From a virus, in IMG/VR virus record IMGVR_UViG_3300038808_000009, positions 1-47,987 of that record: a DNA stretch of 47,987 nucleotides; one strand, given 5' to 3'. The translations under genes and the position numbers were made by a program. The notes beneath the pieces are model-generated. The model made no database searches. It saw only the letters and a program-made list of their open reading frames with translations, and was not told the DNA's origin. Below, piece by piece: positions 2,919-47,801 of this stretch. Positions within the stretch are counted from its first letter, which is position 1, and the number at the start of each line of letters is the position of its first letter.

Positions 2919-4244
2919 ATGCCGACCCTGCCGAGCTTCATTCGCCGCCTGTTCAGCTTCACGGCATTCCAGCAAGGGCAGGGCGACAACTCGTTCCCTG
3001 GCACCCAACTCGACGCTGATCTCGACCAGATCGACAACGCCGTCACCGGGCTCCTACAGCAGATGGGCGGCCTGATCCGGGCGGACGGCAAGCTCGCCAA
3101 CGGGATCGTAACCCGCAACAGCCTCGCGTCGGACCTTCTAATCGGCGTCGGCTCGGCCCGGCCCTGGAAAGCCGGCGTCCCGTACCTCGACGGCGAGAGC
3201 GTCACCCGCGGCTACCTGATCTATCAGGCGGTCCAGAACAGCATCGGCGTCGACCCGGCGGCCGACGTGACGGGCGCCTTCTGGGAGGTCGTCGCAGACC
3301 TATCCCAGGCCGTCACCATCGCTGCGGGCGGCGTCGGGACTGCGGCAATCGCAGACGGCGCCGTGACGGCCGCGAAGCTGGCCGGGCCCATCCCGGGCTC
3401 GATCCTGGGCGACGGCTCGGTGCCGGCCGCCAAGATCGCCCCCGGCCTGGGCGTCGTCCCCATCGGCGCTCGCATCGCCTACGCCGGCCTCCGGGCGCCG
3501 GCCGGGTGGATGCTGGAGGCCGGACAGGCAATCTCGCGAGCCACCTACGCGAACCTGTTCAACGCCATTACCGAGACCTTCAAGGCGGACATTTCGTCCG
3601 GGCAGACCGCCCTCACCAACGCCAGCAAGTCGATCCAGGGGATCGGGCTCGGCGCCGCCTACGTCGAGGGCCCCGGCATCCCCCTAGGCACCCGCCTCGT
3701 CTCGGACGCGGACGGTGGGCTCGCGATCAACAATCAGGCGACCGCGACGACCGCCCAGGCGACGATCAGGGTGCTTCCCTACGGGCAGGGTGACGGTGTA
3801 TCGACCTTCAACGTGCCCGACAGCCGCGGCCGGGCCGACTTCGGCCGCGATAACATGGGCGGGAACGGCTCCGGCCGCCTCGTGGCGACCGTGGACGGTT
3901 CGGCCCTCACCAACAGCGCCTTCGACGCAGGCGCCGGAAAGGAGCGTACCACACTCGGCGTCACGAACCTGCCGACCTCCATGCCGGCAGGCGGCAAGGT
4001 CACGGTCAGCTACCCCGGCTACGCGTCGTCGAAGTACGGCGCCCTGGCGAATATACTGTCGGCCGCGCAGGGCGCGCTCGTGCAGAACGTCTGGGTCCAG
4101 GAAGTCGGTCTGACCCTGACGACAGCAGAGACCCGTGACTTTCAAGCCACGGGAACCGCGAACAACCCGGGAGGCGGGCAACCGTTCAACACCCTCCCGC
4201 CCGCAGCGATCACGAACAAGATCATCTTTCACGGAGTGCAGTAA
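2919..4244 (+). CDS. tail fibre protein with phage tail-collar domain
   Basis: AGGAGA RBS. Collar-type motifs PIGARIAYAGLRAPAGWMLEAGQAISRATYANLFNAI, FNVPDSRGRADFG and GGGQPFNTLPPAAITNKIIF. Confidence 0.85.
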   Translation: MPTLPSFIRRLFSFTAFQQGQGDNSFPGTQLDADLDQIDNAVTGLLQQMGGLIRADGKLANGIVTRNSLASDLLIGVGSARPWKAGVPYLDGESVTRGYLIYQAVQNSIGVDPAADVTGAFWEVVADLSQAVTIAAGGVGTAAIADGAVTAAKLAGPIPGSILGDGSVPAAKIAPGLGVVPIGARIAYAGLRAPAGWMLEAGQAISRATYANLFNAITETFKADISSGQTALTNASKSIQGIGLGAAYVEGPGIPLGTRLVSDADGGLAINNQATATTAQATIRVLPYGQGDGVSTFNVPDSRGRADFGRDNMGGNGSGRLVATVDGSALTNSAFDAGAGKERTTLGVTNLPTSMPAGGKVTVSYPGYASSKYGALANILSAAQGALVQNVWVQEVGLTLTTAETRDFQATGTANNPGGGQPFNTLPPAAITNKIIFHGVQ

Positions 4245-4246
4245 TC

Positions 4247-5440
4247 ATGGCCGCCAAAGTCAACCGTACCCCCGAGATCTGCCAGACGTTCGGCGTTCGG
4301 GCCCAGAACGATCTCGGCTACTCGCGGAAGAAAGTCGCCGGTCTGTTCGGCAACGGCGATATCGAGAGCCAAGGCTTCAACACGCTCCAGGAGATCAACC
4401 CGGTCGTGTCGGGCTCGGCCGGCGGCTTCGGGTGGATGCAGTGGACCGGGCCGCGGCGCCGGGCCTACCTCGCCTGGGCGTCGGCGCTCGGCCTCGATCC
4501 GGCCGCCGACGAGACGAACTACCGCTACATGGTCCACGAGCTTCTGACCATCGAGACGGCCGCGCACCGGGCGATCCTGGCGTGCGCCGACGACGAGGCC
4601 GTGGCCGCGACCGTCGTCTGCACGAAGTACCTGCGGCCCGGCACCCCGCACCTGGACAAGCGCATCGCCAGCGCGAAGCGGAACCTCGTCTACGTGCCGC
4701 CGGCCAAGGGCGCCGCGAGCCCGGACACGGGTCCAGTGGGCACGATCCAGCCGGCGGCGCCCGTCGCACCGCAGGAGCCCGTTAATCAGGCGGCCCCGGC
4801 GGTCCAGGTCGAAGCCGGCCGCTGGCCGGAGGACAGTTTGTCCGCCTTCGAGATCAAGGCGATCCAGCAGCGGTTGCTCGATCTCGGATACCACGTCGTC
4901 GGCTTCGCGGACGGGAAGTGGGGCAAGCGCACGTCGGCCGCTCTGACGGCCCTCCAGCAGCAGGCCGTGAACGAAGGCGCCCAGGTCGCAATCGACGGCC
5001 ACTACGGGCCCCAGACCCGGGCGCTGCTGTCCAGCGACGCCATGAAGGCCACCGTCTCGCCCGAGCGTGCGGCCGTCACGTCGAAGGTTCTGGCGAAGCT
5101 CGGCAACCCGACCGTCCTGGCCGGACGGAAGATCACATGGGCCTCCGCAGGCGCCGTCCTGGCAGGAGTGGGCACGCTGGCGGGCGCCCTGTCGACCGGA
5201 TGGACGACTGAGCTTCCCTGGCCGTTCTCCATGTTCACGGCCTTCCTGCCGCCGTGGGCTCTGCCGCTCGTCATCGTGGCCTTCAACCTCTACACGGCCG
5301 CCAAGTCGACGGGCCTGATCGGTTCGGCCGTCGAGCGGGTCCAGCAGGGGATAGACAATACCGGGGCGCCGGCCGCACCGGGGGCGACTGCGCCCATTTC
5401 CCTGCCCTTCGGGCTCGACAAGCTGTTCCAGCGGTCATGA
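4247..5440 (+). CDS. cell-wall hydrolase: tail-lysozyme-like domain, peptidoglycan-binding repeats and two C-terminal transmembrane helices
   Basis: GLFGNGDIESQGF...GGFGWMQWTGPRRRAYL (tail lysozyme family signature). IKAIQQRLLDLGYHVVGFADGKWGKRTSAAL and IDGHYGPQTRALL (PG_binding_1-like). Hydrophobic stretches AGAVLAGVGTLAGAL and FLPPWALPLVIVAFNLYTAA. Confidence 0.75.
   Translation: MAAKVNRTPEICQTFGVRAQNDLGYSRKKVAGLFGNGDIESQGFNTLQEINPVVSGSAGGFGWMQWTGPRRRAYLAWASALGLDPAADETNYRYMVHELLTIETAAHRAILACADDEAVAATVVCTKYLRPGTPHLDKRIASAKRNLVYVPPAKGAASPDTGPVGTIQPAAPVAPQEPVNQAAPAVQVEAGRWPEDSLSAFEIKAIQQRLLDLGYHVVGFADGKWGKRTSAALTALQQQAVNEGAQVAIDGHYGPQTRALLSSDAMKATVSPERAAVTSKVLAKLGNPTVLAGRKITWASAGAVLAGVGTLAGALSTGWTTELPWPFSMFTAFLPPWALPLVIVAFNLYTAAKSTGLIGSAVERVQQGIDNTGAPAAPGATAPISLPFGLDKLFQRS
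4831..4843. repeat. perfect GGACA-N3-TGTCC palindrome (GGACAGTTTGTCC)
   Basis: Read directly. Lies in the hydrolase gene, codons E-D-S-L-S. Confidence 0.9.
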
Positions 5441-5453
5441 TCGCCGAGGCGTT

Positions 5454-5948
5454 GTGGCGGCCGGGTCTCCCCCGGCCGTCCCCACGGGCATTCCGACAGG
5501 CGTGCCAGCGGGTGCCGTCCTCGACAACGCACAGACACACGCACCGGCCACCATGCAACTCGACGTAGCGACCATCTTGTCCATCGCGGCGTTCCTGCTG
5601 TCGATTGGCACCCTGATCTGGAAGTCGAGCGCCCTGGCGGCCCAACAGCGGGCGTTCGAGGCGTATTCGACCAAGCGGGACACCGAGCGCGAGGAGTGGC
5701 GAAAGGCGCACGAGGCGTCGGTCGACGCGCGCTTCGCGGCCGTCACCGGGTCCACGACGCTTCTGCGCGAGCAGATCGCCGAGGTCCGCGAAAACCTCGC
5801 CAAGAACTACATGATCAAGAGCGAGATCGCAGCAATCGAGCAGCGGGCCACGAACGGTCAGGAGCGTATCTTTACGATGCTTGACAAGATGAACGCCCGG
5901 CTGGACAGTTTGTCCGAGAAGGTACTCCAGGCGCTACAGAAGTCATGA
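5454..5948 (+). CDS. membrane protein with N-terminal TM helix and coiled-coil tail (holin or i-spanin-like lysis candidate)
   Basis: GTG 5454 has GAGG upstream; an alternative ATG is at 5553. ILSIAAFLLSIGTLIW TM segment followed by a charged helical region. Overlaps the terL start by 4 nt. Confidence 0.5.
   Translation: MAAGSPPAVPTGIPTGVPAGAVLDNAQTHAPATMQLDVATILSIAAFLLSIGTLIWKSSALAAQQRAFEAYSTKRDTEREEWRKAHEASVDARFAAVTGSTTLLREQIAEVRENLAKNYMIKSEIAAIEQRATNGQERIFTMLDKMNARLDSLSEKVLQALQKS
5903..5915. repeat. perfect GGACA-N3-TGTCC palindrome (GGACAGTTTGTCC)
   Basis: Read directly. Ends 30 nt upstream of the terL ATG. Confidence 0.9.
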
Positions 5949-7767: not shown

Positions 7768-9997
7768 CGAGACCGATGGGGAGATGGGCCCGCTCGACGT
7801 GTCCGGCGCCACCGCGCCGGCCGCGACGGATGACAAGGCCGACACCAAGCCCCAGAAGGCGCCGCTCTCGCCGCAGGATCGGGCGCTCGCCGCGCAGATC
7901 CGCAAGAACATCCGCGACGACAAGGGGCACTTTCGCAAGGTGTTCCGCCGTATGCGCCGCGATATGCGGATCGCCATGACAGGACACGATAGCACCTGGG
8001 GCGAGGAGAAATACAAGGCCAATATCACCGGGCGCCACGTCAAGGCCAAGACTGCCTCGCTCTACGCGAAGAACCCGAAGGCGGTCGCGCGGCGCATCGA
8101 AAAGATGGATTTCGCGATCTGGGACGAGAACCAAAGCTCGCTCCAGATGGCGATGCAGACGATGCAGGCCGCCCAGCAGGCCGCAGCGGTCCCGACCGAG
8201 CAGGCCGGCGTCGACCCGGCGACCGGCGCCCCCGCGCCCGTGCCGCAGCTTCCGCCCGGGTTCGAGCAGGCCCAGGCGCTCCTCGACGACTTCCAGCAGG
8301 GCTACGCGGCTCGGCAGGCGGCGACGAAGGTCGCTAAGACGCTGGAGAAGCTGTTCGCGCACGCGATCAAGGAACAGCAGCCACTTGGCTTCAAGGAAAG
8401 CATGAAGGCGACCGTTCGGCGCGCTTGCACGACCGGCGTCGGCTACGTGAAGCTCGCGTTCCAGCGGACAACTGGTCCGGCCCCGAGCGTCGACTACCGC
8501 CTGGAGGACAGCCGGACCCGCCTGGAGCACCTGGAGACCCTGATCCAGCGCCAGCAGGAGCAGGACGCCGATACTGGCGACCTCGACGCCGAGAAGGCCG
8601 AGATCGAGGCTATGATGGTCGCGCTCCAGGCCGAGCCCGAGGTCGTCGTGTCCGAGGGCGTGATCTTCGACTTCCCGCAGTCGACGAAGGTCATCCCGGA
8701 CATGCTCACGAAGTCGCTGGAAGGCTTCGTCGGCGCCCGGCACCTGACCGTCGAATATCTCTACACGCCGGAGGAAGTGAAGAACCTGTTCGGCGTCGAT
8801 CTCGGCCGCTCGTTCAAGCCGTACAACGCCAGCGGCAAGTCGAACGACACGGACGGCGAGTACACCGGGCAGTCTGACCTGTTCAACCGCGAGGAAGGCG
8901 ATACCTCCGACACATACGAGGACAAGCCGAAGGGCGATCTCGCGTGCGTCTGGGAGTATTTCGACAAGTCGGCGGGCCTCGTCTACTATATGTGCGACGG
9001 CTACGAGGGCTTCCTAAAGCCCCCGGCGCCGCCGGATATCTACGTCGATCAGTTCTGGCCGGTCTGGGCTCTGACGTTCAACGCCGTCGAGAGCGAGGAA
9101 GATCTATACCCGCCGTCCGACGTGACCCTGCTGCTCGACATTCAGCGCGAGTACAACCGGAGCCGCGACGGCAAGCGCGAGCACCGCAAGGCCGCTCGGC
9201 CGCGGTGGGTCTATCCGAAGGGCGCGTTCCCGGACGAGGATCTGGATTGGCTGGCGAGCGCCGCGGCGTTCACGGCCACCGGGCTCAACATGGACCCGAA
9301 CCGCGATATCAAGACGGTCCTCCAGTCCGTGCCCGTTCCCGGCGTCGACCCGAACCTCTACGACGTGGGCGAGATCATGCAAGATCTCCAGTTCGTCGTC
9401 GGCAACTCGACGGCCGGTCTCGGCGCCCCGCAGAAGGGCACCGCTACGGCCAATCAGATCGCGGCCGGCGCCAACGCCACGTCGGACCAAAGTTCCGTGG
9501 ACGACCTCGACAACTTCCTGACCGCCCTCGTCCGGGGCGTCGGACAGGTCATGCTTCGCGAGTACAGCGAGGAGACCGTGATGAAGCTCGTCGGCCGCGG
9601 CGCGTCCTGGCCGCAACTGACGCTCCAGGATATCGCGGACGAGATCTACCTGGAGATCGAGGCGGGCTCGACGGGCAAGCCCAATCAGGCCGTCGAGATC
9701 GCCAATTGGGAGAAAATGCTGCCCCTGCTGATGCAGATGGGCGGGATCGCGCCGGCTTGGCTGGCGCGCGAGACGCTTCGCCGCCTGGACGACCGCATGG
9801 ACCTGACCGACGCCTTCGTGGACGATCTGCCGTCCATCGTGGCGCAGAACCGTCAGGTCGCCGCCCAGGGGGCCGATCCGAATGCCGACCCGACCGCGCA
9901 GGGCCACAACGGGCCTGCGAATGGGCCCGCCCCTCCGGGTGGGCCTGCCGGCCGCGGCGCACCGATGGGAGCACAATCAGCCCCCGCACCCGTCTAG
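7760..9997 (+). CDS. portal protein
   Basis: About 745 aa, placed between terL and scaffold/capsid. ORF 7703 (TTG) trimmed to ATG 7760, which has CAGGAGG 10 nt upstream. Acidic N-terminus and Gly/Pro-rich C-terminus. Confidence 0.8.
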   Translation: MFDETDGEMGPLDVSGATAPAATDDKADTKPQKAPLSPQDRALAAQIRKNIRDDKGHFRKVFRRMRRDMRIAMTGHDSTWGEEKYKANITGRHVKAKTASLYAKNPKAVARRIEKMDFAIWDENQSSLQMAMQTMQAAQQAAAVPTEQAGVDPATGAPAPVPQLPPGFEQAQALLDDFQQGYAARQAATKVAKTLEKLFAHAIKEQQPLGFKESMKATVRRACTTGVGYVKLAFQRTTGPAPSVDYRLEDSRTRLEHLETLIQRQQEQDADTGDLDAEKAEIEAMMVALQAEPEVVVSEGVIFDFPQSTKVIPDMLTKSLEGFVGARHLTVEYLYTPEEVKNLFGVDLGRSFKPYNASGKSNDTDGEYTGQSDLFNREEGDTSDTYEDKPKGDLACVWEYFDKSAGLVYYMCDGYEGFLKPPAPPDIYVDQFWPVWALTFNAVESEEDLYPPSDVTLLLDIQREYNRSRDGKREHRKAARPRWVYPKGAFPDEDLDWLASAAAFTATGLNMDPNRDIKTVLQSVPVPGVDPNLYDVGEIMQDLQFVVGNSTAGLGAPQKGTATANQIAAGANATSDQSSVDDLDNFLTALVRGVGQVMLREYSEETVMKLVGRGASWPQLTLQDIADEIYLEIEAGSTGKPNQAVEIANWEKMLPLLMQMGGIAPAWLARETLRRLDDRMDLTDAFVDDLPSIVAQNRQVAAQGADPNADPTAQGHNGPANGPAPPGGPAGRGAPMGAQSAPAPV

Positions 9998-10057
9998 CCG
10001 GAGTTGCCCGGCCGGACATATTGTCGTATCGCAGCATCACGGGAATAGAGGATCGAA

Positions 10058-27877: not shown

Positions 27878-27884
27878 GGCTTGG

Positions 27885-33815: not shown

Positions 33816-33847
33816 TTGTTAGTTCGCATCGTGACGAGGAAAACGCC

Positions 33848-35121: not shown

Positions 35122-35129
35122 GGTCCGCC

Positions 35130-37200: not shown

Positions 37201-37284
37201 GGCGACCTCGCAAGAGAAAGGGCCCGCCGGTCGCCCGGCGAGCCCTCCCTATAGCCTACCGCCCCGAGGGGCGACAGACCCGCC

Positions 37285-38868
37285 TTAGATCGCGATGTTG
37301 CCGCCGCCGTCCGTGACCGCACCGGCCAGGATCAGGCCGCCGCCCGTCTTGCGGACGTGGTGGGCCATGACGCCGCCGCCACCGCCCGCGTTGAACACCG
37401 CGGCAGAACCGGCCGCGAAGCCCATGCAGTCGATATCGTGAGCGTTGACGATCGTAGTCCCGGCAGCAGCCGCGACGCCGAAGATGCCCGCGCCAGTATC
37501 CGGGCCGTAAGCCTGCGCCAGGTGGATCATCTCGATATCGTGGACGTCGATCTGGGTGCTTCCGTTTAGCAGGACGAAGCCTTGCTTGAACGGCGAGCCC
37601 GCGTCGATATACATCTCGATATCGGAGATGCGGAACTGCGCGATGCTGTCCAACTGGACCGCGACCTTCGCGCAGTTGATGTGGCCGCCCTTGAGCGAGT
37701 GGCCGGGGCACTGGTAGCCGGACGCCGAGTAGCGAAGGCCGGTCTGGACGCCGTAGGCGACGAGATCGGTGACGGAGATGCCCTCGATCTGCTGATTGCC
37801 GCCGACGCCGTTGCCGCCCTCGATCACGATGCCCGTGTCCACGCCCGCCACGGTCACGCCGTAGACCGAACTATCGCCGACCGAAGCCTGGATCGCCTGA
37901 TGTTCCGAGAAGATCAGGATGCCAGTGCCCTTGGTGCCGAAGCTCTCGTTCGAGTAAGACACGACGTCCACGCCGTTGATCCGGCCGTGCTGACCGTTCT
38001 GGTAGGCGAGGAAGTTCTGCGGCCGAGCGTCGGGACGCCCCTCGAACGACACATCCGTGACGAACAACTTGCCGGGCGATGCCGGGTTGCTGTTGCCGCG
38101 CATGTAGATCACGGACCCGTCGCCGATATCCGGGCACGCCGAGACGATCGCCCGGAAGCCCTCGATCTTGGACGCGAACATGTTGAGGATCAGACCGTTG
38201 TGGATCCCCGCGCCGGACCAAATCAGACGGCTCTCGGTATCGGCGCCGTACATCTTGATCGCCGCCGTGGTGCTCTCGAACTGGAGCGTCTCGTTGAGGT
38301 TGAACGACCCGCCCGGGAGGACGAAGGCGCCACCGCCGGCATTGATGAGGTCAGCACCGGCCGCCCGGAACGCCGCGACGTTCTGCGCGGGCGCAGCGTT
38401 CTCGTCGGCGCCGTAGTCGCGCGGGTTGAACTTCCGCTCGCGGAAGTTGATCGCCTTGGAGATCGCAACCTCGTCGAAACCGCCCGTGCCGCCGCCCGTG
38501 CCGGGATCGCCCTTGTCGCCCTTCGGACCGGGAGGACCCTGCGGACCGGGAACGCCCTGCGGGCCGGGGGTGCCAGCGCCACCGCTGCCGGGAAGCGGAT
38601 GCGCCGCGGACGGGATGCGATCCCAGGCGTACCAGTTGCCGTCCTGGCGCAGACGACGCCAGGAGAGCGGGAGGTCGTTCGTGGGGTTGAGTTCGGTCGC
38701 GACCTGCATGACGAAGGTCGGGCCGTAGCCCCAGGTCTCGACGTCCACGTAGAGCCACTGCGTGCGGGCGCCGGGCGGATGATTACCGGCGTCCGGGACG
38801 ACGTACTGCCCGGTGTCCGTGACGCCGTTCAAGTCCGTAAACTGCGGGAGTGTTTGGTTCGTGGGCAT
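37285..38868 (-). CDS. tailspike/depolymerase with pectate-lyase-type beta-helix and a short collagen-like segment
   Basis: FNPRDYGADENAAPAQNVAAFRAAGADLINAGGGAFVLPGGSF (Pectate_lyase_3-like entry motif). GTPGPQGVPGPQGPPGPKGDKGDPG. Start set at ATG 38868. Confidence 0.72.
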   Translation of the reverse strand: MPTNQTLPQFTDLNGVTDTGQYVVPDAGNHPPGARTQWLYVDVETWGYGPTFVMQVATELNPTNDLPLSWRRLRQDGNWYAWDRIPSAAHPLPGSGGAGTPGPQGVPGPQGPPGPKGDKGDPGTGGGTGGFDEVAISKAINFRERKFNPRDYGADENAAPAQNVAAFRAAGADLINAGGGAFVLPGGSFNLNETLQFESTTAAIKMYGADTESRLIWSGAGIHNGLILNMFASKIEGFRAIVSACPDIGDGSVIYMRGNSNPASPGKLFVTDVSFEGRPDARPQNFLAYQNGQHGRINGVDVVSYSNESFGTKGTGILIFSEHQAIQASVGDSSVYGVTVAGVDTGIVIEGGNGVGGNQQIEGISVTDLVAYGVQTGLRYSASGYQCPGHSLKGGHINCAKVAVQLDSIAQFRISDIEMYIDAGSPFKQGFVLLNGSTQIDVHDIEMIHLAQAYGPDTGAGIFGVAAAAGTTIVNAHDIDCMGFAAGSAAVFNAGGGGGVMAHHVRKTGGGLILAGAVTDGGGNIAI

Positions 38869-39000
38869 GTTGCACTTTCGGTTACTGTGAACCGCGCGCA
38901 ACATCTGCCGTGAACATTGCCGGCTAAAGCGGGCAAGGGGACGCGGCGATGCTGTGGCGGCCCGATGACCCTGGCATGATCCGAGTGGGCACGCAAGGGC

Positions 39001-39029
39001 TTGACGGCCTGTTCATCGGTGTGCATATT
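39001..39029 (+). promoter_or_regulatory. sigma-70-like promoter of the RHH/primase operon
   Basis: TTGACG (39001..39006), 17 nt, CATATT (39024..39029). Extended -35 CTTGACGGCC is shared with the promoter at 47057. Confidence 0.5.
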
Positions 39030-39065
39030 GGCGCCGTTACCAACCGTACCGACTAGGAGACCGAC

Positions 39066-39257
39066 ATGGCTGCCCCCAAGGCCCGACAGGCGAAAGCCAA
39101 GACCGGCGCCTCGACCCTCACCCGCGCCTCGATCCACATGGACGCCGCGCTCCTGAAAAAGCTCGACGGCCTCGCCGACCTGGAGGGCCTGTCGCGCTCC
39201 GCGGTCATCACGCGCTTCGTCAAGGCGGGGCTCCAGGCCGCGGGCAAGACGAAGTGA
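39066..39257 (+). CDS. ribbon-helix-helix (CopG/Arc/MetJ-type) DNA-binding protein
   Basis: TRASIHMDAALLKKLDGLADLEGLSRSAVITRFVKAGL fits a beta-alpha-alpha RHH. TAGGAGA RBS. Confidence 0.72.
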   Translation: MAAPKARQAKAKTGASTLTRASIHMDAALLKKLDGLADLEGLSRSAVITRFVKAGLQAAGKTK

Positions 39258-39448
39258 CCGGCGCGTTCGAACACTTCGTCGGCGCCGTCCTGATGGCCGC
39301 GCTCGCTATCGCCGCTTGCCGTGAAGGCGAGGCCAACCTAAAGCATTACGTCGACCACGCAGGTATTCGCTACCTGTTCAGCGGTTGGGGGTATTGGCTT
39401 CTCGGTATCCTGATCGGTTATCTCGCACTCAAGATCCTGGTGACATGA
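39254..39448 (+). CDS. small membrane protein (64 aa, two TM segments)
   Basis: FVGAVLMAALAIAA and YWLLGILIGYLALKILV. GTGA and ATGA junctions with its neighbours. Confidence 0.5.
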   Translation: MTGAFEHFVGAVLMAALAIAACREGEANLKHYVDHAGIRYLFSGWGYWLLGILIGYLALKILVT

Positions 39449-39807
39449 TGGCACTACAGCCCCGATCCCTCGACGAGGCGCGGATCATGTATCCGGCGCT
39501 CCAGTTCTACATCACTGCCCAGGACGCGGGCGGCGAAGTCACGCTCGAACTGATCGAGCCCAACACCGACGACGACCCGGAGACGGCCGGGCAGTCCTAC
39601 TCGTGCTCGGCGCCGACCGAGCGCGAGTGCTGGGAGAAGGCGTTCCCGCCCGTCGACCTGGAGAGCGTTCCGGAGGCCGAGCGGTTCGCCAGCGCCGAAG
39701 GCACGCGAGCCCATGCCGAGGCCGCGGTCTCGTTCCCCGAGCCTGACGAAGTGCCGGCCGACGAGCCGCCACTGGAGGACCCGGCCGTGCCGGGCCTGTT
39801 CGACTGA
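39445..39807 (+). CDS. acidic hypothetical protein ending in GLFD
   Basis: ATG 39445 overlaps the upstream stop. C-terminus ...EPPLEDPAVPGLFD. Confidence 0.6.
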   Translation: MMALQPRSLDEARIMYPALQFYITAQDAGGEVTLELIEPNTDDDPETAGQSYSCSAPTERECWEKAFPPVDLESVPEAERFASAEGTRAHAEAAVSFPEPDEVPADEPPLEDPAVPGLFD

Positions 39808-40346
39808 TGGAGACCTTCGACACGCACGAACTGGCATGGTGCGCCGGGTTCTTCGACGGCGAGGGCTCGACGTGCCTACAGCGCAAGGGCGGCTGGCGCG
39901 AGCTATGGGTCCAAGTGCCTCAGTCCGAGCTATCGACGCTCGAACGCTTCCAGCGCGCAGTCGGCGGTCGTGGCAAGATCGGCGGCCCCTGGCAACCGAA
40001 GTACGCCGGCAGTAAGCCGACGTATAGACTAGACTTCCGAGGCTACCGCGAGGCGCAGTTCGTCCTCGCTCTGCTGTGGCGGTTCCTGTCCGAGCCGAAG
40101 CGCCAGCAAGCCACGGTGTGCCTCGTCGAGGCCGCCGCCTACTTCAAAGAACGAGCCGCCTACGCGCGCAAGGGCCCTTCCAAGCTCACGCTCGCGCAGG
40201 CCGCAGAGATCCGCGCGGCGCGAGATCAGGCCAGGATCGGCCGACAGCGCGTTCCGCGGAATTGGGTCGTTCAGGTTGCCGACCTGTACGGCGTTTCCAC
40301 TCACTGCATCGCCACGGTGCTATCAGGTAGAGGCCACATCCAATGA
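39807..40346 (+). CDS. LAGLIDADG-type homing endonuclease with C-terminal HTH
   Basis: ELAWCAGFFDGEGST motif. C-terminus VQVADLYGVSTHCIATVLSG. TGATG junction with the upstream gene. Confidence 0.72.
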   Translation: METFDTHELAWCAGFFDGEGSTCLQRKGGWRELWVQVPQSELSTLERFQRAVGGRGKIGGPWQPKYAGSKPTYRLDFRGYREAQFVLALLWRFLSEPKRQQATVCLVEAAAYFKERAAYARKGPSKLTLAQAAEIRAARDQARIGRQRVPRNWVVQVADLYGVSTHCIATVLSGRGHIQ

Positions 40347-41239: not shown

Positions 41240-41476
41240 GTGTTGCATCGTAAGCTCACGCCCGCAGAAGTTGCGGAAGCTCGTGCTCTGCTGATCGCAG
41301 ACATTATCATCACCACTAAGATGCCGGGAACTTCGTCTCTCGCAACAATTCTGCGGACGCGATACCACTTTCTCGCACAGAAGATCTGGCCGGACGCTAA
41401 AGCGCGAGACTACGACACGCAGACGAAGCGGGCTATACTCGATCTAGCCCGTAAAATTGTCGCCGCGGGTCTGTGA
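41240..41476 (+). CDS. hypothetical protein (78 aa), low-GC islet
   Basis: GTG start with GGAGA RBS. GTGA overlap with the primase gene. Confidence 0.5.
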   Translation: MLHRKLTPAEVAEARALLIADIIITTKMPGTSSLATILRTRYHFLAQKIWPDAKARDYDTQTKRAILDLARKIVAAGL

Positions 41477-43821
41477 TCGTGAATGCTCACCCGAACCTCC
41501 CGAACGTCGCCAAGGCAATAGAACTGCTCAAGGCGCTCGACGAGCACGGACGGCACAACGTAGTCGCGCTCGATCCGAACGAACAACAGGGCCCCATAGG
41601 TCGGACATTTGAGCCCGGCCAGTGGGACGCTATCGCTGATTGGCTACGTGCCCATCTCGACTACAACCTGTACTTCTCGCGCAACGAACCGCGGGAAGGC
41701 GCCCCGCACGGCAAGCTGTCCGAGGCCGATATCGTCGCGGTCCGCGCGCTCGGGATCGACCTGGACATAGCCGGCGGCACGCCCGAGGAGATCGAGGCGC
41801 AGCGCGTCGAGCTTCACGATACCGTTGAGCGGATCGTCAACGGCCGCGCGCCGCCCACGGTCATGATCGAGACCGGCAACGGCGCGCAGGGCTTGTGGCT
41901 GCTGCCCGAGAAGGTCGCGGTGGACAAAGTGTCCGGGCCGAACGCCAAGGCGCTCGGGCTCGGAATGCGCAAGGCGATGGGCGGCGACAGCATCGCCAAC
42001 CTCGACCGCATCATGCGCCTGCCCGGCCTGATGAACCATTCGAGCGTGAAGAAACGCGCGCTCGGCAAGACGGGCGGGATGACCAAAGTCATCTACGCTG
42101 ATCGCCGGCAGGCGAACAAGGCGGTGCGGCTCGATATCGACGCGCTCGGGGCGGTCTACGGCTTCATCTCGTCGGCCGAGATCACGGATAGCGCCGTCGC
42201 GGCCGTGGCGGACCAGATCGACCTCGCCCAGGCCCGGGAAGGCGTGAGCGCGGAGCTACAGGCCCGGCTCGACGCGGCGCCCATCGTCAAGGGCGTGCTC
42301 TCGGGCGAGACGCCGCCCCGGGACACGTCGGGCTCGGGCTGGCGGGCGGCGCTCGCCGGGAACATGGCGCGGGCGGGCTTCACGCTCCAGGACTACGCGG
42401 CGACGGTGCTCGGTTGGGAGCCCGGCCAGCCGAAGCAAGGCGACCTCGACCTCCGCACCCTGGCGCGGGATTGGGCTCGCGTCGGCGAGACGGCCGCCAC
42501 GGCGGCTGCGGCCGAGACGCACCTGTCCGAGGTTTCGGAAGCGGATATCGACGTTTCGGCCTGGAACGAACAGCGCGTGAAGCAACGCGAGGACGAGATC
42601 GAGGCGAAGCTGGAGGCCAAGACAGATATCGTCTGGGAAGACCCGGCCGACTGGAAAGACGTGGAGATCCCCGAGCGGGTGTTCTACGTCGACAGCCTCG
42701 TCCCGCAGGGCGGCTCTACTCTCGTCACCGGCATCGGCGGCGTCGGCAAGTCGAACCTCGTGCTCCAGATGCTCGTCTGCATCGCGCTCGGGCGCCCGTT
42801 CCTGGGTCTCGCGACGCGGCAGGCCAAGGTCTGCGCGTTCTTCTGCGAGGACGACCGGAACGAGATCGGCCGGCGCCTCCAGCGGGTGTGCGCGGATCTC
42901 GATATCGACCTGGAAGATCTGCGCGGCCGGATGATCTGGACGAGCCGCATCGGCGAACTCAACACCCTGGCCGAGTTCGAGGCGAAGAACGGCGGCGCCA
43001 TGCGGCTGTCGAAGCTCCACGGCAAGCTGCTCAAGGCGGCCGTGGACTTCGGCGCCGAGGTCGTGGCGCTCGACACTATCGCCGACGTGTTCAGCGGGAA
43101 CGAGATCGACCGGCAACAGGTCTCGGCGTTCGTGAAGCGGTGCGCCGGCTCGTTCGTGGATCGCTGCGGCGCGTGCATCCTGCTCGGCCACCCGTCCAAG
43201 TCGGGCTCGGCCGAAGGCGGCGACATGACCTCCGGCTCGACGGCCTGGAAGGGCTCGGTCCGGTCGCATCTGGCGCTCGGCTACGATGGTGACGACGAGG
43301 ACGCCCAGAAGTCCCCGTTCCGCAAGCTCTCGAACCTCAAGGCCAACTATGCCGGCACGCTCGGCGCCATGAAGCTCCTGTTCTCGGGCCGGGCCTTCTC
43401 GGTGTTCTCGGTCGCCAAGGCCCCGAACAGTGACGCGCCGACCCTCGCGACCCCGCGCGTGCCCATTACCTCGACGGTGCTGGAGGGCGCTATCGCAGAG
43501 GCCGTGGCGCGGGCCGATATCGACGGCGTGATCCTGGCCGCAGCGGCGCAGAGCCCGCACTACATCGTGTCGGCGCTCAAGGCTCGCGAGAAGGATGCGC
43601 TGCGCCCGTTCAAGGCCGCAGAGGTCGCCGCGGCTGTCAAGGCCATGGTACTCGCCGGGACGCTGATCGAGGTCTCGGCCAAGTCGGCGAGGCGGCATCC
43701 GATCAAGGCGTATGCGCTGCGGCCGGTGTCGGACGAGGCGGCTGCTCGGTTCTTTACGGCAGAGGAGGACCACTCGGACAGTTTGTCCGACGGGGAGAAT
43801 GAGCCGGGCCTGTTCGACTGA
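41473..43821 (+). CDS. bifunctional primase-polymerase (AEP) and RecA-fold (AAA_25/RepA-like) helicase, ending in GLFD
   Basis: AEP motifs LGIDLDI and IETGNGAQGLWLL. Walker A GIGGVGKSNL and Walker B VVALDTIADV. C-terminus DGENEPGLFD. Confidence 0.87.
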   Translation: MIVNAHPNLPNVAKAIELLKALDEHGRHNVVALDPNEQQGPIGRTFEPGQWDAIADWLRAHLDYNLYFSRNEPREGAPHGKLSEADIVAVRALGIDLDIAGGTPEEIEAQRVELHDTVERIVNGRAPPTVMIETGNGAQGLWLLPEKVAVDKVSGPNAKALGLGMRKAMGGDSIANLDRIMRLPGLMNHSSVKKRALGKTGGMTKVIYADRRQANKAVRLDIDALGAVYGFISSAEITDSAVAAVADQIDLAQAREGVSAELQARLDAAPIVKGVLSGETPPRDTSGSGWRAALAGNMARAGFTLQDYAATVLGWEPGQPKQGDLDLRTLARDWARVGETAATAAAAETHLSEVSEADIDVSAWNEQRVKQREDEIEAKLEAKTDIVWEDPADWKDVEIPERVFYVDSLVPQGGSTLVTGIGGVGKSNLVLQMLVCIALGRPFLGLATRQAKVCAFFCEDDRNEIGRRLQRVCADLDIDLEDLRGRMIWTSRIGELNTLAEFEAKNGGAMRLSKLHGKLLKAAVDFGAEVVALDTIADVFSGNEIDRQQVSAFVKRCAGSFVDRCGACILLGHPSKSGSAEGGDMTSGSTAWKGSVRSHLALGYDGDDEDAQKSPFRKLSNLKANYAGTLGAMKLLFSGRAFSVFSVAKAPNSDAPTLATPRVPITSTVLEGAIAEAVARADIDGVILAAAAQSPHYIVSALKAREKDALRPFKAAEVAAAVKAMVLAGTLIEVSAKSARRHPIKAYALRPVSDEAAARFFTAEEDHSDSLSDGENEPGLFD
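41922..41934. repeat. perfect GGACA-N3-TGTCC palindrome (GGACAAAGTGTCC)
   Basis: Read directly; codons V-D-K-V-S. Confidence 0.9.
43776..43788. repeat. perfect GGACA-N3-TGTCC palindrome (GGACAGTTTGTCC)
   Basis: Read directly; codons S-D-S-L-S, 31 nt before the primase stop. Confidence 0.9.
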
Positions 43822-44160
43822 TACGGTGCCGCTACGGTGTGCGCGGTTCTCTGCGCGCTTCTCGGATGGGGTGCGCGGTTCTCCGCTAAGTGCTTGAAAT
43901 CATTTGCGCGGTTCTCGTGCGCGGTTCTCGCTCAGTTGTGCGCTACGGCGCCGCGCGGTTCTTGCGCGGTTCTAGTATCAACCCCCGGCTACCATTACGT
44001 TTTTCGGTTGCGCGGTTCTCGGTGCGCGGTTGCGCGGTTCTACCCCTATATCCTAAAGGATATATCCGGGGGCCTGGAGGCGCCCCGTCTAATCCACCGG
44101 AGTATATCCGCTCCGCGGCGGGTCGGCCGGAAATTCCGGACAAAAGTTCCAAAACCTTTT
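43822..44160. other. putative origin of replication (iterons plus A/T-rich palindrome/DUE-like segment)
   Basis: Immediately downstream of the primase-helicase gene. TATATCC-TAAA-GGATATA palindrome at 44047..44064, further TATATCC copies at 44061 and 44103, A/T-rich stretch at 44125..44162. Confidence 0.65.
43840..44041 (+). repeat. iteron array: about nine same-orientation copies of (T)GCGCGGTTCT(C)
   Basis: GCGCGGTTCT at 43841, 43873, 43906, 43919, 43953, 43964, 44010 and 44032. Truncated copy at 44024, degenerate GCGCGCTTCT at 43853. Spacing is irregular (11-46 bp). Confidence 0.85.
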
Positions 44161-44456
44161 TGGGGCTCCTCGATCCCGAGGCGATGGGCACGCCCCGAGG
44201 AGATCAGCCCCGCGGGCCGAACGCGCTCCCAGGCACGCCCCGGGGCGCCCGCACCCGCCGCGGCAGGCCCCCGGGCGAGGAGATGGGCACGCCCCGGGAC
44301 AGCCGCGGCGCCTAGGATCGCTAGAAACGGCCCGCCAGGGGCCGCCAGGGGTGCCGCGGCTAGTCCGGGAGCTTCCGAGCCCTTCGCGGCCGTTCTAGGC
44401 CCGTTTCTGGCGATTTGCGGCGCGAGCGCCCCGCGACGGGATACCCCGCAACGGAA

Positions 44457-44486
44457 AACGCCCCGACGCGGGAGCGTCGAGGCGTT
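44457..44486 (-). terminator. rho-independent-type terminator of the leftward operon
   Basis: Minus strand: AACGCCTCGACGC-TCCC-GCGTCGGGGCGTT (13-bp stem including one G-U), followed by TTCCGTT. Confidence 0.5.
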
Positions 44487-44681
44487 CAGGTCGTCGAGGT
44501 CGGTGCGGGGCGCTACTCCCGGAACACCCATCGCAACAGGCGCTCGACGCCTAGCAGCGGGGCGAACGCGGCGAGGAACACCGCGGCGAGGATGAGGAGC
44601 GCCAACATCAGGGCAGGAACCACACCGCGCACGCGGCGACCATGGGCGCAACGATCAGCGCGGCCGTGAGAAGGGCGCCGG

Positions 44682-45713
44682 TCACGCGACGCGCTCGCAC
44701 ATGACGAGGTAGCCGGACAGCTTGACCTCGACTTGCCGCGCCCCGGCGCTCAACTGCTCCGCGGCGCTGATCCCGTCATGGTGCGCGGTCCAGCCGCCCG
44801 CGGTGTCCCGCAGCGATAGGCTGTGCATGATATCGAACACGCGATCCCGCAGCGCGGCGCCCGCAGCGTCGGCCCGCTTGCGGATGATGGTCCGGCGGGC
44901 GGTGTCGGCGAACCCGCCCGGTGTCCAGGTTGTGATGTGGTATTCGGCCATGCTGCAATCCTCGCTTTGCTCGTCTTGAGGTCGCGCCCGCCTTCGGCGG
45001 TCACGCGGTCCGGCTCCCGTGAGTGTGGCGCGCTCGCGCTCGACGCGGGCCGCCGCGGCTTCGGCCTCGCGGGCCGCCTTGGCGACGGCCGCGGCTTCGG
45101 CGCGAGCCGCACGCGCGGCGATCCGCTCCGGAGTGTTGCGGGCGCTCCAGGTCCGGAAGGCCGCGGCCTCGTCCGCGTCGGTGTCATAGGCCGGGACGGG
45201 GAGGCCGAACGCTTCGGCATAGTCGCAAGCCGGGTTGGCGATGCGGTTCAGGCTCTCCAGAGCGCGCGAGCGGTCATAGTCGCGCTTACGGGGCAGGCGC
45301 TCGACGGCGACCGTGTATTCAGCGAAGTAGTGCGCAAGGTTCGCGGCGTGGATCTGAGCGGTCGCGTCGGGGTTAGCCGTGCCGTCCGGAGCAAAGGCGT
45401 TCACATCGCCGCGGTTTTGACCGCCGAAAGCGCCGATGAACGGGACCGTAAAGGACTTGCGAACGCGGCCATAGCCGAGCGCGGAGTGAATGGGCCCGAT
45501 ATGCTTGCCGCGGGTCGTGACGCTGTAGTCCCGCGAAGTGACGAGCGCGACCAATTCGCCCTCGACGTTCGGAACGAGATGCGCGACGGGCGTGGAATAG
45601 CTGTAAATCTTGCGGCCGTGGAACGAGAAGTTACCGTTGTGCGAGCGGGCTTCGTCCTGAGCCTGATGGGCCCAGATGTGAGCGACCTGACGGTTTGCGA
45701 CAACTTTAGCCAT
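44682..45713 (-). CDS. hypothetical protein (343 aa): conserved-looking N-terminal domain, Ala-rich coiled coil, C-terminal domain
   Basis: ORF. N-terminus MAKVVANRQVAHIWAHQAQDEARSHNGNFSFHGRKIYSYSTPVA. No family named with confidence. Confidence 0.6.
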   Translation of the reverse strand: MAKVVANRQVAHIWAHQAQDEARSHNGNFSFHGRKIYSYSTPVAHLVPNVEGELVALVTSRDYSVTTRGKHIGPIHSALGYGRVRKSFTVPFIGAFGGQNRGDVNAFAPDGTANPDATAQIHAANLAHYFAEYTVAVERLPRKRDYDRSRALESLNRIANPACDYAEAFGLPVPAYDTDADEAAAFRTWSARNTPERIAARAARAEAAAVAKAAREAEAAAARVERERATLTGAGPRDRRRRARPQDEQSEDCSMAEYHITTWTPGGFADTARRTIIRKRADAAGAALRDRVFDIMHSLSLRDTAGGWTAHHDGISAAEQLSAGARQVEVKLSGYLVMCERVA

Positions 45714-45796
45714 GGGTCCGGTTCCTGTGATGCGAGGGCGTTGCGAAGTAACGACGCCATAGTGGCGTCGCTACGGTGTCGTGTCAAGCGTGATTT

Positions 45797-46027
45797 TCAG
45801 ACGAAGCGGCCATTCCCGCGGCGGAGCTTCACGGCCTTGATCCGGTCCGCGGGAAACAGCGCGGCGAACGCCTCGCGCGCCTCGCGCGGCGTCGAGGCCG
45901 CAACGTCGCCCTCAAAGGCGATCCGGCGACGCCCCGCAGGGGGCGCCTCGCGATGCGTCCAGAGGACGACGAAGGGGCGCAGAGACGCTTCGCGCGGCTT
46001 CGCCGCTCTCGCGCTAAGGGGCGCCAT
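45797..46027 (-). CDS. hypothetical protein (76 aa)
   Basis: ATG 46027 overlaps the stop of the upstream ORF (TGATG). Part of ORF 45797..46384. Confidence 0.4.
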   Translation of the reverse strand: MAPLSARAAKPREASLRPFVVLWTHREAPPAGRRRIAFEGDVAASTPREAREAFAALFPADRIKAVKLRRGNGRFV

Positions 46028-46323
46028 CAGCGCGCCACCTTCACGAAACGGCCGGTGACGGGGCAACGCGGCCGGGGCGCCCGTCCGGCCTTGATCGCGG
46101 CCGTGACGGGGCCGCCGCTCGCGATGATGGGCTCGACCTGTCCGCGATGGCGCGCGTCGAGGGGCGAGGCGAAGGCGACGCGGGCGCCCGACAGCGCCGT
46201 GAACACGACGAGCGCGGCGAAGGCGAGAAAGAACGCGGCTAGGCCCGCGTCGCCGTCGAGGGCGAAGCCCGCGAGATGGGCCGGAACGTGCGAGGGGAGC
46301 GGAGCGGTGTAAGCGAAGTGCAT
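46027..46323 (-). CDS. hypothetical membrane protein (98 aa)
   Basis: AGLAAFFLAFAALVVFTAL hydrophobic segment. First gene of the leftward operon. Confidence 0.45.
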   Translation of the reverse strand: MHFAYTAPLPSHVPAHLAGFALDGDAGLAAFFLAFAALVVFTALSGARVAFASPLDARHRGQVEPIIASGGPVTAAIKAGRAPRPRCPVTGRFVKVAR

Positions 46324-46470: not shown

Positions 46471-46506
46471 GGGCAGGATGTGATAGGTTGCGCCTATCCG
46501 GACAAC

Positions 46507-46535
46507 TTGTCTGGGACAGTCGCCCGGACATAAGT
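46507..46535 (+). promoter_or_regulatory. candidate terS promoter overlapped by two operator-like sites
   Basis: TTGTCT (46507..46512), 17 nt, ATAAGT (46530..46535). GGACAACTTGTCT at 46500..46512 and GGACATAAGTTCC at 46526..46538. Confidence 0.4.
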
Positions 46536-46560
46536 TCCGACAGCGAAAGGGAAAACTGTC

Positions 46561-47049
46561 ATGCCGGAAAAAGGTGGTCGACTAACCGAGCAGGAAACGG
46601 CATTCATCGCCGAGATGACGCGCGTCGGCGATCCGGTCAAAGCGGCCGAACTGGCGGGCTACGCTCACCCACGGCAGGCGGCTCACAAGCTCAACGCTCG
46701 TCCCGAGATCGTCCGGGCGGTGTGGGAAGCGACGGAGCTTGTGCTGCGCGGCGAGGGCGCGGCCGTTGGCGTCGGGACGCTGATCGAGATCGCCCGGGAC
46801 GAGAAGGCGCCGAAGAACGCTCGCGTTGCCGCGGCGGGTCATCTCGTCAAGCTCAACGGCTACGGGGAGGCGATAGGCGCGAGCGGGAGCGCCAAGCCGC
46901 TGTCAGAGATGACGCGAGCCGAGCTTGCGGAGGCGCGAGCGCGGGCTGTGCTCTACCTCGACGAGTTGCAGCGGGGCGGAACGACTATCGAGGGCGAGGC
47001 GGTCGCGCTCCCGGCTCCGGACGTTTCGTCCGGCGGGCTTTTCGACTGA
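46561..47049 (+). CDS. terS: terminase small subunit ending in GLFD
   Basis: LTEQETAFIAEMTRVGDPVKAAELAGYAHPRQAAHKLNARPEIVRAV is Terminase_2-like. C-terminus PDVSSGGLFD. Confidence 0.78.
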   Translation: MPEKGGRLTEQETAFIAEMTRVGDPVKAAELAGYAHPRQAAHKLNARPEIVRAVWEATELVLRGEGAAVGVGTLIEIARDEKAPKNARVAAAGHLVKLNGYGEAIGASGSAKPLSEMTRAELAEARARAVLYLDELQRGGTTIEGEAVALPAPDVSSGGLFD

Positions 47050-47056: not shown

Positions 47057-47085
47057 TTGACGGCCGGCTAAGCCTCTGATATCGT
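47057..47085 (+). promoter_or_regulatory. sigma-70-like early promoter
   Basis: TTGACG (47057..47062), 17 nt, TATCGT (47080..47085). Extended -35 CTTGACGGCC is identical to that at 39000..39009. Confidence 0.45.
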
Positions 47086-47253
47086 TGAGGAATTGCTAGT
47101 CATCTAGTGACTATCGAGCGCCCCGGGCGCCTCGTCCGCGCCGTCGAGCGCCGGCCGGGGCGCGCCCAGGCGCCCGCCTCCCGGTACACCCGCGCGGGCG
47201 CGCCGATGACCTCGCCTGCCGCGCCGACGAAAATTCCCGCCAAAATCGAAACT

Positions 47254-47266
47254 GGACATTCTGTCC
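47254..47266. repeat. perfect GGACA-N3-TGTCC palindrome (GGACATTCTGTCC), intergenic
   Basis: Read directly. Followed by a 9-bp-stem inverted repeat, ggcccggcc (47267..47275) and ggccgggcc (47291..47299). Confidence 0.9.
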
Positions 47267-47447
47267 GGCCCGGCCTATCAGATCGCCCAGGGCCGGGCCG
47301 CCGACGCGCGGTGTAGTGAAGCGAACGCGACTACCGCTCCGGACCCGGGGCTATCGTCCGCGAAGCCCGGCCCGACAAAACGGTTCTTCGTCATAACGGG
47401 TTGATAGGTCGATCCCGAAGCTCACCGGCCAAATTGAAGAGGACGAG

Positions 47448-47777
47448 ATGCGTCAGACAGATGGAAAAATCATCTGCGATCACTGCCATACGGACATTAC
47501 GAACGCATACCTCATGTGCGACCGCTTGACCGGCGAGTGGTGTCGTAAGTGCTTCGCTGACTGCCCTTTGCCGCTGACATCAGACAAGTGTTGGGGCGAG
47601 GGCTGCCCGACCCTCGTGGCTGAAGCGGGTCCTGACTTAGAAGCAACCAAAGTCCCGGCCGCCAAACCGGTCTGGGTCCGGCTCTACGAAGCTGAATGCA
47701 GACGCGTGCGATCAACCCGAAACGACGAAGCGACAGACGACCCCCTCACTCAGCCATCAACCCCGAATGACGAATGA
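47448..47777 (+). CDS. Cys-rich zinc-finger-like small protein (109 aa), lower GC
   Basis: CDHCH...C..........C..C and C...C patterns. GAAGAGGA RBS. Confidence 0.6.
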   Translation: MRQTDGKIICDHCHTDITNAYLMCDRLTGEWCRKCFADCPLPLTSDKCWGEGCPTLVAEAGPDLEATKVPAAKPVWVRLYEAECRRVRSTRNDEATDDPLTQPSTPNDE

Positions 47778-47801
47778 CCGACAAAACGTCCGCCCAGGCC
47801 C

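Follow-up and report, generated by a model that had tools for sequence, protein, structure and literature searches.

The 47,987-bp viral contig IMGVR_UViG_3300038808_000009 (hereafter the window, meaning this full stretch, which is the whole contig, from JGI metagenome 3300039091) carries many copies of a short palindrome, GGACA-N3-TGTCC. This palindrome is probably the operator of the phage's genetic switch, bound by a dimeric, phage-encoded helix-turn-helix (HTH) regulator and amplified across the genome into roadblocks or silencers resembling the stoperators of mycobacteriophages. The motif is strongly enriched, it forms a conserved operator layout in front of a cro-like gene in the window and in related phages, its dispersed copies turn over between genomes under selection that acts on the DNA, and operator and dispersed copies vary together. 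The ends of the contig (1-55 and 47933-47987) are identical over 55 bp, and it is therefore a complete circular assembly of ~47.9 kb without host DNA. Its GC content is 67.5%, and it encodes a temperate tailed phage with an integrase, a family-A DNA polymerase, a DUF2800/PD-(D/E)XK nuclease, an Enc34-type single-stranded DNA-binding protein (SSB), an SNF2 helicase, an AAA_25 primase-helicase, a GapR-like protein, TerL, a portal protein and tail proteins.

Enrichment and extent of the palindrome

We refer to GGACA-N3-TGTCC as an exact copy and to GGAC-N5-GTCC as a strict copy. The window has nine exact copies where dinucleotide shuffles predict 0.00, and 20 sites with at most one mismatch where the same shuffles predict 1.21; at up to two mismatches there are 55 sites (20.3 expected). 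Among all 5-mer inverted repeats with spacers of 0-8 nt, GGACA/TGTCC alone stands out (9 vs 0.09 expected from half-site frequencies), and its enrichment is limited to a spacer of 3 nt. In 300 trials of shuffling synonymous codons within each gene, which preserves all protein sequences and per-gene codon usage, exact copies averaged 0.26 +/- 0.47 and never exceeded 2. Since the enrichment goes beyond what a protein- and codon-usage-preserving shuffle can produce, the constraint must lie on the nucleic acid. Chance, or a dinucleotide or codon artefact, is ruled out as the source of the motif by the shuffles, by the half-site frequencies and by the D-x-x-S counts given below. The conserved core is GGAC-N5-GTCC, present in 15 copies (1.84 expected), and adding one-mismatch sites to these 15 brings the total to 21 window sites (expectations of 1.8 and 1.2 for the two patterns, each taken separately). 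The centre of the core is 77% A+T in the window, vs 32% genome-wide.

The conserved sequence extends past the 13 bp. All nine exact copies in the window carry a 3′ G and three of the nine a 5′ C; in the relatives' exact copies the 5′ C is found in 13/16 and the 3′ G in 16/16. When window and relatives are pooled, 25/25 exact copies are followed by G and 16/25 preceded by C, so that the full element reads as a 15-bp palindrome, cGGACAnnnTGTCCg (cGGACA-N3-TGTCCg). The weakness of the 5′ C in the window can be attributed to coding constraints, because a C at that position needs an xCG codon before GAC. Five of the nine exact copies are GGACAGTTTGTCC or its complement. In the literature, the sole match to the exact motif is an unrelated C-box prediction in mycoplasmas, which is taken up below.

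An earlier sequence-only reading of this DNA had listed nine perfect copies, each followed by G and five of them the same 13-mer or its complement, and had expected them to exceed shuffled controls; every coordinate is correct on the real sequence, and the other statements hold as well. Its one-mismatch sites are all genuine. Three further sites were overlooked, at 7117, 47889 and 47019 (GGACGTTTCGTCC), the first two of which are probably due to chance. Among the sites it had called weaker relatives, those at 32324, 33793, 44138, 46526 and 47779 have two mismatches, while that at 40353 has three. Sites do occur in different reading frames (0, 1 and 2) and in genes of both strands, as it had stated, and its conclusion that the constraint falls on the nucleic acid and not on the protein agrees with both the codon shuffle and the rare-codon encoding described below.

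Operator, dispersal and candidate regulators

The copy at 33751-33763 (minus strand; one mismatch) is the proximal operator of the cro-like promoter, in the arrangement TTGACG-cc-GGACGTTTTGTCC-g. It fills the 17-bp spacer between the -35 and -10 elements of this predicted promoter, 27 nt upstream of the ATG of the cro-like gene. The -35 hexamer TTGACG (33766-33771, minus strand; 0 mismatches) lies 2 nt from the proximal site, an arrangement also found in R1, a related genome (contig 3300038809_000016; 42.1 kb assembled from the loci L001, L015 and L018). A weaker distal operator, GGAACTTTTGTCC (33793-33805; two mismatches), lies 29 bp from the proximal site and 43 nt upstream of the start of a gene for an 81-aa protein, p81. 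The proximal site thus overlaps the predicted lytic core promoter, and dyad symmetry is combined with at least two neighbouring sites. On sequence, this layout is that of an O_R-type operator, at which we infer binding of a regulator.

The layout is conserved. Its shared order (distal site, 10-25 bp, TTGACR, 1-3 nt, proximal site, ribosome-binding site, ATG) is complete before the cro-like gene in the window, R1, the related loci L009, L010, L011, L012 and L040, and Rhizobium phage RHph_N65, which is the nearest cultured relative by TerL (49% identity). A looser form, with a full site beside the -35 hexamer and either an unclear distal site or a proximal half-site, is found in L016/17 and L020/21/23, with one clear operator site only in L016/17. 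In most relatives the proximal and distal sites are 20-40 bp apart. In all, the operator with TTGACR is present in the window plus 13 relatives (R1, RHph_N65 and 11 loci). The motif stands in the promoter spacer beside TTGACR in every relative with a clear cro-like homolog; the most distant, L022, is only partly matched. The genomes with this layout span 59-69% GC, and their cro-like proteins are as little as ~35% identical. Placement between a cro-type gene and a divergent repressor gene is seen in those relatives that encode a CI-like protein, and the divergent gene of the window is that of p81, a non-HTH protein. Megablast of 20 kb of the window against deposited phages gave no match, and the use of the primase-helicase as an anchor for related loci gave no confirmed match.

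Searching related phage genomes, as the sequence-only reading had proposed, revealed the operator pair in relatives and a dense set of copies in R1. R1 has 28 GGAC-N5-GTCC copies; its composition predicts ~1.6, and codon shuffles give 7.2 +/- 1.6 and never more than 14. Its cro operators, GGACGCGATGTCC and GGACCTGATGTCC, have relaxed centres, as do its dispersed copies, whereas the window has the strict GGACA...TGTCC in both operator and dispersed copies. Hence, operator and dispersed copies co-vary. The complete genome of RHph_N65 (48.7 kb) has the operator pair, yet GGAC-N5-GTCC occurs just twice in it, about as often as by chance; dispersal is therefore a derived state, reached by amplification of the operator within the clade of the window. 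In relatives that encode a CI-like protein, 0-4 copies were counted per 20 kb, and the L003/L040 genome has 9 copies in 33.6 kb, mainly in control regions.

Most dispersed copies are written into genes (13/15 strict copies in the window and 24/28 in R1). Their positions are mostly not conserved, the copy at 4831 alone being common to R1. At 3587, 5903, 8466, 14176 and 28943, the amino acids of the window deviate from those of all relatives precisely at the site. The coding routes used, (xxG) GAC NNN NNG TCC or GGA CAN NNT GTC CGN, are the cheapest, and a single frame (frame 2) holds 17/24 intragenic copies in R1. Moreover, all three D-S-L-S peptides are written GAC AGT TTG TCC. The codons involved are rare, AGT making up 2.9% of Ser, TTG 4.4% of Leu and GGA 5.1% of Gly codons, and the peptide D-x-x-S is encoded as a site in 8/57 cases (1.5 expected). 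Rare codons, amino-acid changes and site turnover together indicate selection on the presence of sites in the DNA and not on their exact location. TTGAC is not in excess within 45 nt of dispersed sites: it accompanies 2/21 of them in the window and 3/36 in R1, close to what random placement gives. The strict copies are located in the structural/late, replication and primase operons. None fall in the p81-integrase operon, the collagen-like genes or the leftward operon 44682-46323 (0/15 in the window, 0/28 in the R1 equivalents); these site-free units cover 13.9% of the window sequence and 11.6% of that of R1, and the joint chance of finding zero copies there is ~0.003 by our own arithmetic.

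The candidate binding protein is the 74-aa product of the cro-like gene (33499-33723, minus strand), which adjoins the operator in every relative. It is predicted to fold into four helices (predicted local distance difference test score, pLDDT, 96.8), and its segment TASKWFRRGAIP resembles the recognition helix of Cro and YdaS in the model. The family has 171 representatives. The top matches are Cro of Xfaso-1, XPH1, the N-terminal domain of TP901-1 CI, the 434 repressor and C.EcoT38IS, all non-significant but consistent with one another, and neither Pfam (even at E <= 10) nor PHROGs returned a match. In L009, L010, L019-L027, L040 and RHph_N65, a CI-like HTH_3 protein (~150 aa; Pfam E = 7e-10) is encoded divergently from the cro-like gene, and in relatives this gene is co-oriented with int. 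Its slot in the window is taken by p81 (33848-34093, plus strand), upstream of and overlapping the integrase gene. The p81 model is a two-helix antiparallel hairpin (pLDDT 84) with fold matches to generic coiled coils only, and on this model p81 was rejected as an HTH repressor. Among genomes with a visible immunity region, p81 is found only in the window and R1, which are exactly the two with dense intragenic dispersal, although with n = 2 the association may be coincidence.

The sequence-only reading had proposed operators for a dimeric phage protein and had named three possible binders. The comparative layout supports the operator and the Cro-like candidate. The RHH protein (39066-39257) has no tblastn homolog in L009 or L010, both of which have operators, and the zinc-finger open reading frame (ORF) has no homolog in any locus; neither is thus retained as a conserved binder. 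The RHH protein is also the sole repressor-family match among the scanned window proteins. The evidence thus supports the operator hypothesis with the cro-like protein as its candidate binder, as judged from sequence.

The mechanism that we propose is as follows. A dimer of the phage HTH regulator would bind the 15-bp palindrome, with the 74-aa cro-like protein as the candidate conserved beside the operator; in relatives, the CI-like XRE repressor probably shares the same sites. Two copies would control the cro-like promoter, one of them from within the -35/-10 spacer. The regulator would act on initiation at three places, namely the cro promoter and, as described below, a second control region and the scaffold junction. 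The same sequence has arisen de novo at many places inside the lytic genes of the window's clade. At intragenic copies without -35 context, as well as at the copy before the origin, the bound regulator would hinder transcription through the lytic operons and into the origin.

Several points speak against this mechanism. The cro-like protein matches HTH domains only below significance, in fold as well as in profile comparisons (E about 1-2). No canonical CI-type repressor was found in the window, either by tblastn for a homolog of the CI-like protein or by protein family scans, and one would hardly expect a prophage to be silenced by a Cro-type protein alone. Internal promoters may be unrecognisable at 67% GC, and some copies may simply be their operators; a scan with the sigma-70 consensus gives nothing at the sites, but it misses the cro promoter too and is uninformative in this GC range. 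The grouping of site-free units is post hoc and its statistics modest, and once one-mismatch sites are included, 1/21 sites in the window and 2/36 in R1 do fall in non-lytic units. Finally, a test of site orientation relative to transcription is inapplicable because the sites are palindromic.

Other explanations retain the regulator and change the function of the copies. The sites could serve the same regulator as a reservoir or as a looping or bridging scaffold (for buffering or genome condensation), possibly together with p81, which we regard as rather unlikely. Dense intragenic dispersal only in the two genomes with p81 in CI's place would suit such a function, as would the predicted hairpin of p81, a typical oligomerisation module, and selection that apparently acts on the number of sites and not on position. 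However, the link to p81 comes from just two genomes, its contact with DNA or with the cro-like protein is purely hypothetical, it could be a recombination directionality factor or an unrelated gene, and a pure sink does not predict site-free non-lytic units. A further scenario, improbable in our judgement, is that p81 has replaced CI and bridges a Cro-type HTH protein bound at dozens of copies into a repressive nucleoprotein that silences the lysogen. If true, this would be a sequence-specific, phage-encoded form of self-silencing, distinct both from promoter-centred switches and from monomeric stoperator repressors. A sigma-54 or extracytoplasmic function (ECF) promoter reading of the motif was dropped, as the spacing does not fit such promoters.

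The remaining explanations dispense with the phage regulator. A host-encoded DNA-binding protein recruited by the phage, such as a global regulator or nucleoid protein of a probably alphaproteobacterial host, would account for the lack of a canonical repressor in the window and for an operator that stays constant while the divergent partner varies (CI-like, p81 or none). However, the operator is kept over relatives of ~59-69% GC, which probably infect different hosts, always beside the phage's cro-like gene, and motif details follow the phage lineage (strict in the window, relaxed in R1). On both grounds, a host factor is quite unlikely. The sequence-only reading had also raised small RNA hairpins, in this case a GGACA-loop-UGUCC element in lytic mRNAs, with an RNase or an RNA-binding protein to read it. 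Every copy can pair into a stem of 5 bp closed by a triloop, the majority of copies lie in transcribed lytic genes, and several stand shortly ahead of start codons. Against this, stability does not exceed that of shuffles at 8/9 sites (fold z-scores -0.5 to -1.7), and R1 has lost the inner pair (4 bp left) with GGAC/GTCC invariant, so that sequence is conserved and not pairing. Furthermore, compensatory stem variants are not enriched, only the one 5-mer being so, the best-conserved copies lie in the promoter spacer, upstream of the transcript, and an Rfam search gave no family match; an RNA-level element is very improbable. Its third suggestion, nick or modification sites, here understood as strand-specific nicking or base modification in virion DNA, to which restriction-modification sites may be added, could draw on the 3′ G that is invariant on the plus strand in the nine exact copies, on the GAC-N5-GTC within the core, which has the shape of an interrupted type II site, and on the several HNH/His-Me endonucleases encoded. 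Nick consensus sequences of T5, phiKMV and tf are asymmetric and on one strand, whereas this motif is palindromic and both of its flanks are symmetric in relatives. The broader AhdI-like GAC-N5-GTC is not enriched (30 vs 24 expected), and no DNA methyltransferase domain was found among 40 mostly non-structural proteins scanned. Phages normally avoid restriction sites and do not amplify them, but here the motif has been amplified. With the promoter-spacer position of the best-conserved copies also left unexplained, the nick or modification reading is unsupported and exceedingly improbable.

Individual sites and other features of the genome

The dispersed copies on the plus strand begin in the gene of a tail-collar protein, with an intragenic copy at 3587-3599 (GGACATTTCGTCC) that has no counterpart at the homologous position in relatives. 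The tail lysozyme gene has an exact copy (4831-4843) in which D-S-L-S is spelled with rare AGT and TTG codons; this copy is shared only with R1 (L001:8785). The 3′ end of gene 5553-5948 holds another exact copy (5903-5915), which precedes the terL ATG by 29 nt and has a perfect TTGACA 16 nt upstream. An intragenic copy in the portal gene (8466-8478; GGACAACTGGTCC) is followed by one in the portal-scaffold intergenic region (10014-10026; GGACATATTGTCG|TA), 31 nt before the scaffold ATG, whose position is conserved in all six clade genomes. The conserved TGTCG|TA variant of this copy is explained by its setting in a TTGnnn-4nt-site-TAnnnn frame. Further intragenic copies are found at 14176-14188 (GGACGTTTTGTCC, with rare GGA, CGT and TTT codons), at 18208-18220 (exact; GGA CAG ATT GTC CGG) and, again as GGACGTTTTGTCC, at 21729-21741 in the gene of a 1206-aa protein. 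The exact copy at 22815-22827 lies 26 nt before the end of this gene and 25 nt before the next start (22853). The sequence-only reading had noticed several sites shortly before start codons, and the copies at 5903, 10014, 22815, 33751 and 46500 do end 25-48 nt ahead of one.

Minus-strand genes carry a one-mismatch copy in the DNA polymerase gene (25202-25214), an exact copy in the DUF2800 nuclease gene (28943-28955), an exact copy (32923-32935) near the 5′ end of gene 32119-33033, for which the JGI call places the start at 32965, and a one-mismatch copy at 44715-44727, 33 nt from the end of gene 44682-45713. The primase-helicase gene (plus strand) has an exact copy at 41922-41934 and another copy at 43776-43788, 33 nt before its stop codon and 48 nt before the first iteron, with a counterpart at the same position in L010 and RHph_N65. 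An iteron array follows this copy in all three genomes, and its conservation even in site-poor relatives would fit a block on transcription into the origin. In the window, the iteron TGCGCGGTTCT is present in seven copies (43836-44041) directly after the primase-helicase stop codon; RHph_N65 and L010 have iterons of their own at the same place (GGCGGAGAT and ACGTAACAAG, respectively). A 'ctaagt..ttgaaatcatt' box at the iteron region is common to the window and RHph_N65. The iteron region 43836-44041 is probably the replication origin, and ORF 43837-44595 is probably spurious over its first 200 nt at the least.

A second control region (46500-46538) lies between the leftward and the long rightward operons and contains imperfect copies at 46500 (GGACAACTTGTCT) and 46526 (GGACATAAGTTCC). 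It is upstream of gene 46561-47049, which opens the rightward operon, and each clade member has 2-5 copies there. The overlooked copy at 47019-47031 (plus strand) is at the 3′ end of the same gene, 18 nt before its last base. An exact copy at 47254-47266 (plus strand) falls in the apparently non-coding segment 47050-47447, with analogous copies in R1, L002 and L005. This segment of ~400 nt has no convincing ORF, since ORF 47107-47316, which is Arg/Pro/Ala-rich, is probably spurious, and it may be a leader or a small RNA. The best sigma-70-like promoter of the genome, TTGACG-17-TATCGT with an upstream TG, is at 47057-47085.

Several other features of the genome deserve mention. The block comprising the integrase, cro-like, replication and polymerase genes (23533-35121 in the window) is inverted in R1 (27998-39272), and the rest is collinear. 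Five unrelated proteins end in the tail ...GLFD* (41473-43821, 46561-47049, 39487-39807, 26552-26851 on the minus strand and 26248-26601 on the minus strand), and the primase tails of L010 (DLFD*) and RHph_N65 (GIFD*) are similar; it looks like a short docking peptide for a common partner, perhaps a hub of the clamp or SSB type. Two genes on the minus strand, opposite to their neighbours, have zero motif copies and encode a 603-aa protein with long collagen-like Gly-X-Y repeats (35389-37200; Pfam Collagen, E = 5.5e-41) and a 527-aa protein that also has collagen-like repeat DNA (37285-38868). The 71-aa product of 85-300 has a weak Pfam match, E = 7e-4 and 20 bits where the curated cut-off is 27, to the Acb2/Tad1 hairpin domain, which belongs to anti-CBASS/anti-Thoeris sponge proteins (Pfam). 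Free-standing genes for HNH/His-Me-type endonucleases are placed among the replication genes (25775-26248 and 31613-32119 on the minus strand, 39807-40346 on the plus strand), as would be expected of homing endonucleases, and RHph_N65 has several such genes too. The GapR-like DNA-binding protein (27098-27382, minus strand; Pfam GapR_DNA-bd, E = 8e-31) is kept in L009-L012, L040 and R1. The GapR family is typical of Alphaproteobacteria, and its presence here fits an alphaproteobacterial host.

Comparison with known switches and dispersed operators

The switches of lambda, 434, P22 and P2 (C-int/cox) have dyad-symmetric sites between divergent repressor and cro genes, one of which overlaps the lytic promoter. 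The window resembles them in the symmetry of its sites and in the predicted promoter overlap, and its relatives with a CI-like gene also in the divergent arrangement. Unlike lambdoid switches, the window has two sites and not three, a cro-like protein without a Pfam or PHROG family, a non-HTH hairpin protein in the repressor slot, and a genome-wide amplification of the operator. The C1 operators of phage P1 are mostly promoter-associated and are not intragenic copies built from codons. P1 shares with the proposed system a single immunity regulator with operators genome-wide, including at replication and late functions, but its 22 dispersed C1 operators have a 17-bp asymmetric consensus, in which they differ from the sites of the window (PMC8546580). 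C-boxes of restriction-modification controllers in mycoplasmas have been predicted as GGAC-N5-GTCC (PMC5282649). They have an identical inverted-repeat core and a predicted small XRE-type HTH dimer as binder (PMC5282649), and the controller C.EcoT38IS is among the fold matches of the cro-like protein. However, restriction and methylase genes are absent here, a C-box stands alone at its promoter and is not dispersed, and the identity of the cores is most likely coincidental.

The stoperators of Cluster A mycobacteriophages (L5 gp71, Bxb1 gp69) belong to phages that, like that of the window, are temperate, of ~50 kb and high in GC (PMC6550527, PMC9283540). There, a 13-14 bp repressor-binding sequence is present in 20-30 copies genome-wide, only a few of them true operators inside early lytic promoters and many at non-promoter positions where they block elongation (PMC6550527). 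Among related phages, the motif changes together with the regulator. In the window and R1, too, copies are far above chance (15 or 21 in the window; 28 vs ~1.6 in R1), and -35 context is found at the cro operator only, though weak GC-rich promoters were possibly missed. Cluster A stoperators have no dyad symmetry; a monomeric two-domain repressor binds them, and their orientation follows that of transcription (PMC6550527). Here, in contrast, the sites are palindromic, their sole asymmetry in the window being the 3′ G (9/9) vs the 5′ C (3/9), which largely vanishes in relatives, and most copies lie inside ORFs. Moreover, the candidate binder is a small Cro-type HTH protein, which we call dissimilar to gp71 without direct comparison, and the relatives infect Proteobacteria (Rhizobium phage RHph_N65), not Actinobacteria. 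A roadblock role is proposed here by analogy with stoperators.

The closest formal analogue is the 17-bp repeat of Cluster O mycobacteriophages, TGTTCGG-NNN-CCGAACA, likewise an inverted repeat with a 3-bp centre that prefers A/T (PMC4351075). It is found in >30 copies, about one third of them in ORFs and mostly off predicted promoters, and a dimeric binder has been predicted while its function is unknown (PMC4351075). It differs in its sequence and in its 7-N3-7 arms, its phages are not obviously temperate, and no operator context is known for it (PMC4351075). The motif of the window, by comparison, is tied to a cro/CI switch, and the direction of its evolution is apparent from a cultured relative that lacks dispersal. 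The path can be read from the ancestral operator pair alone (RHph_N65) to the derived state of 15-28 copies, and the sequences give direct evidence of selection for binding sites within ORFs, paid for in codon choice and even in protein sequence. This suggests a rule for finding the regulons of phage regulators in uncultured phages, namely to seek the switch operator elsewhere in the genome. Prophage-silencing arrays that block elongation are well documented essentially only for Cluster A mycobacteriophages, and the palindromic repeats of Cluster O are unexplained. The window would represent an independent origin of such elongation-blocking arrays, in a family that includes a cultured phage of Rhizobium, and would offer a testable explanation for the dyad-symmetric dispersed repeats of other phages.

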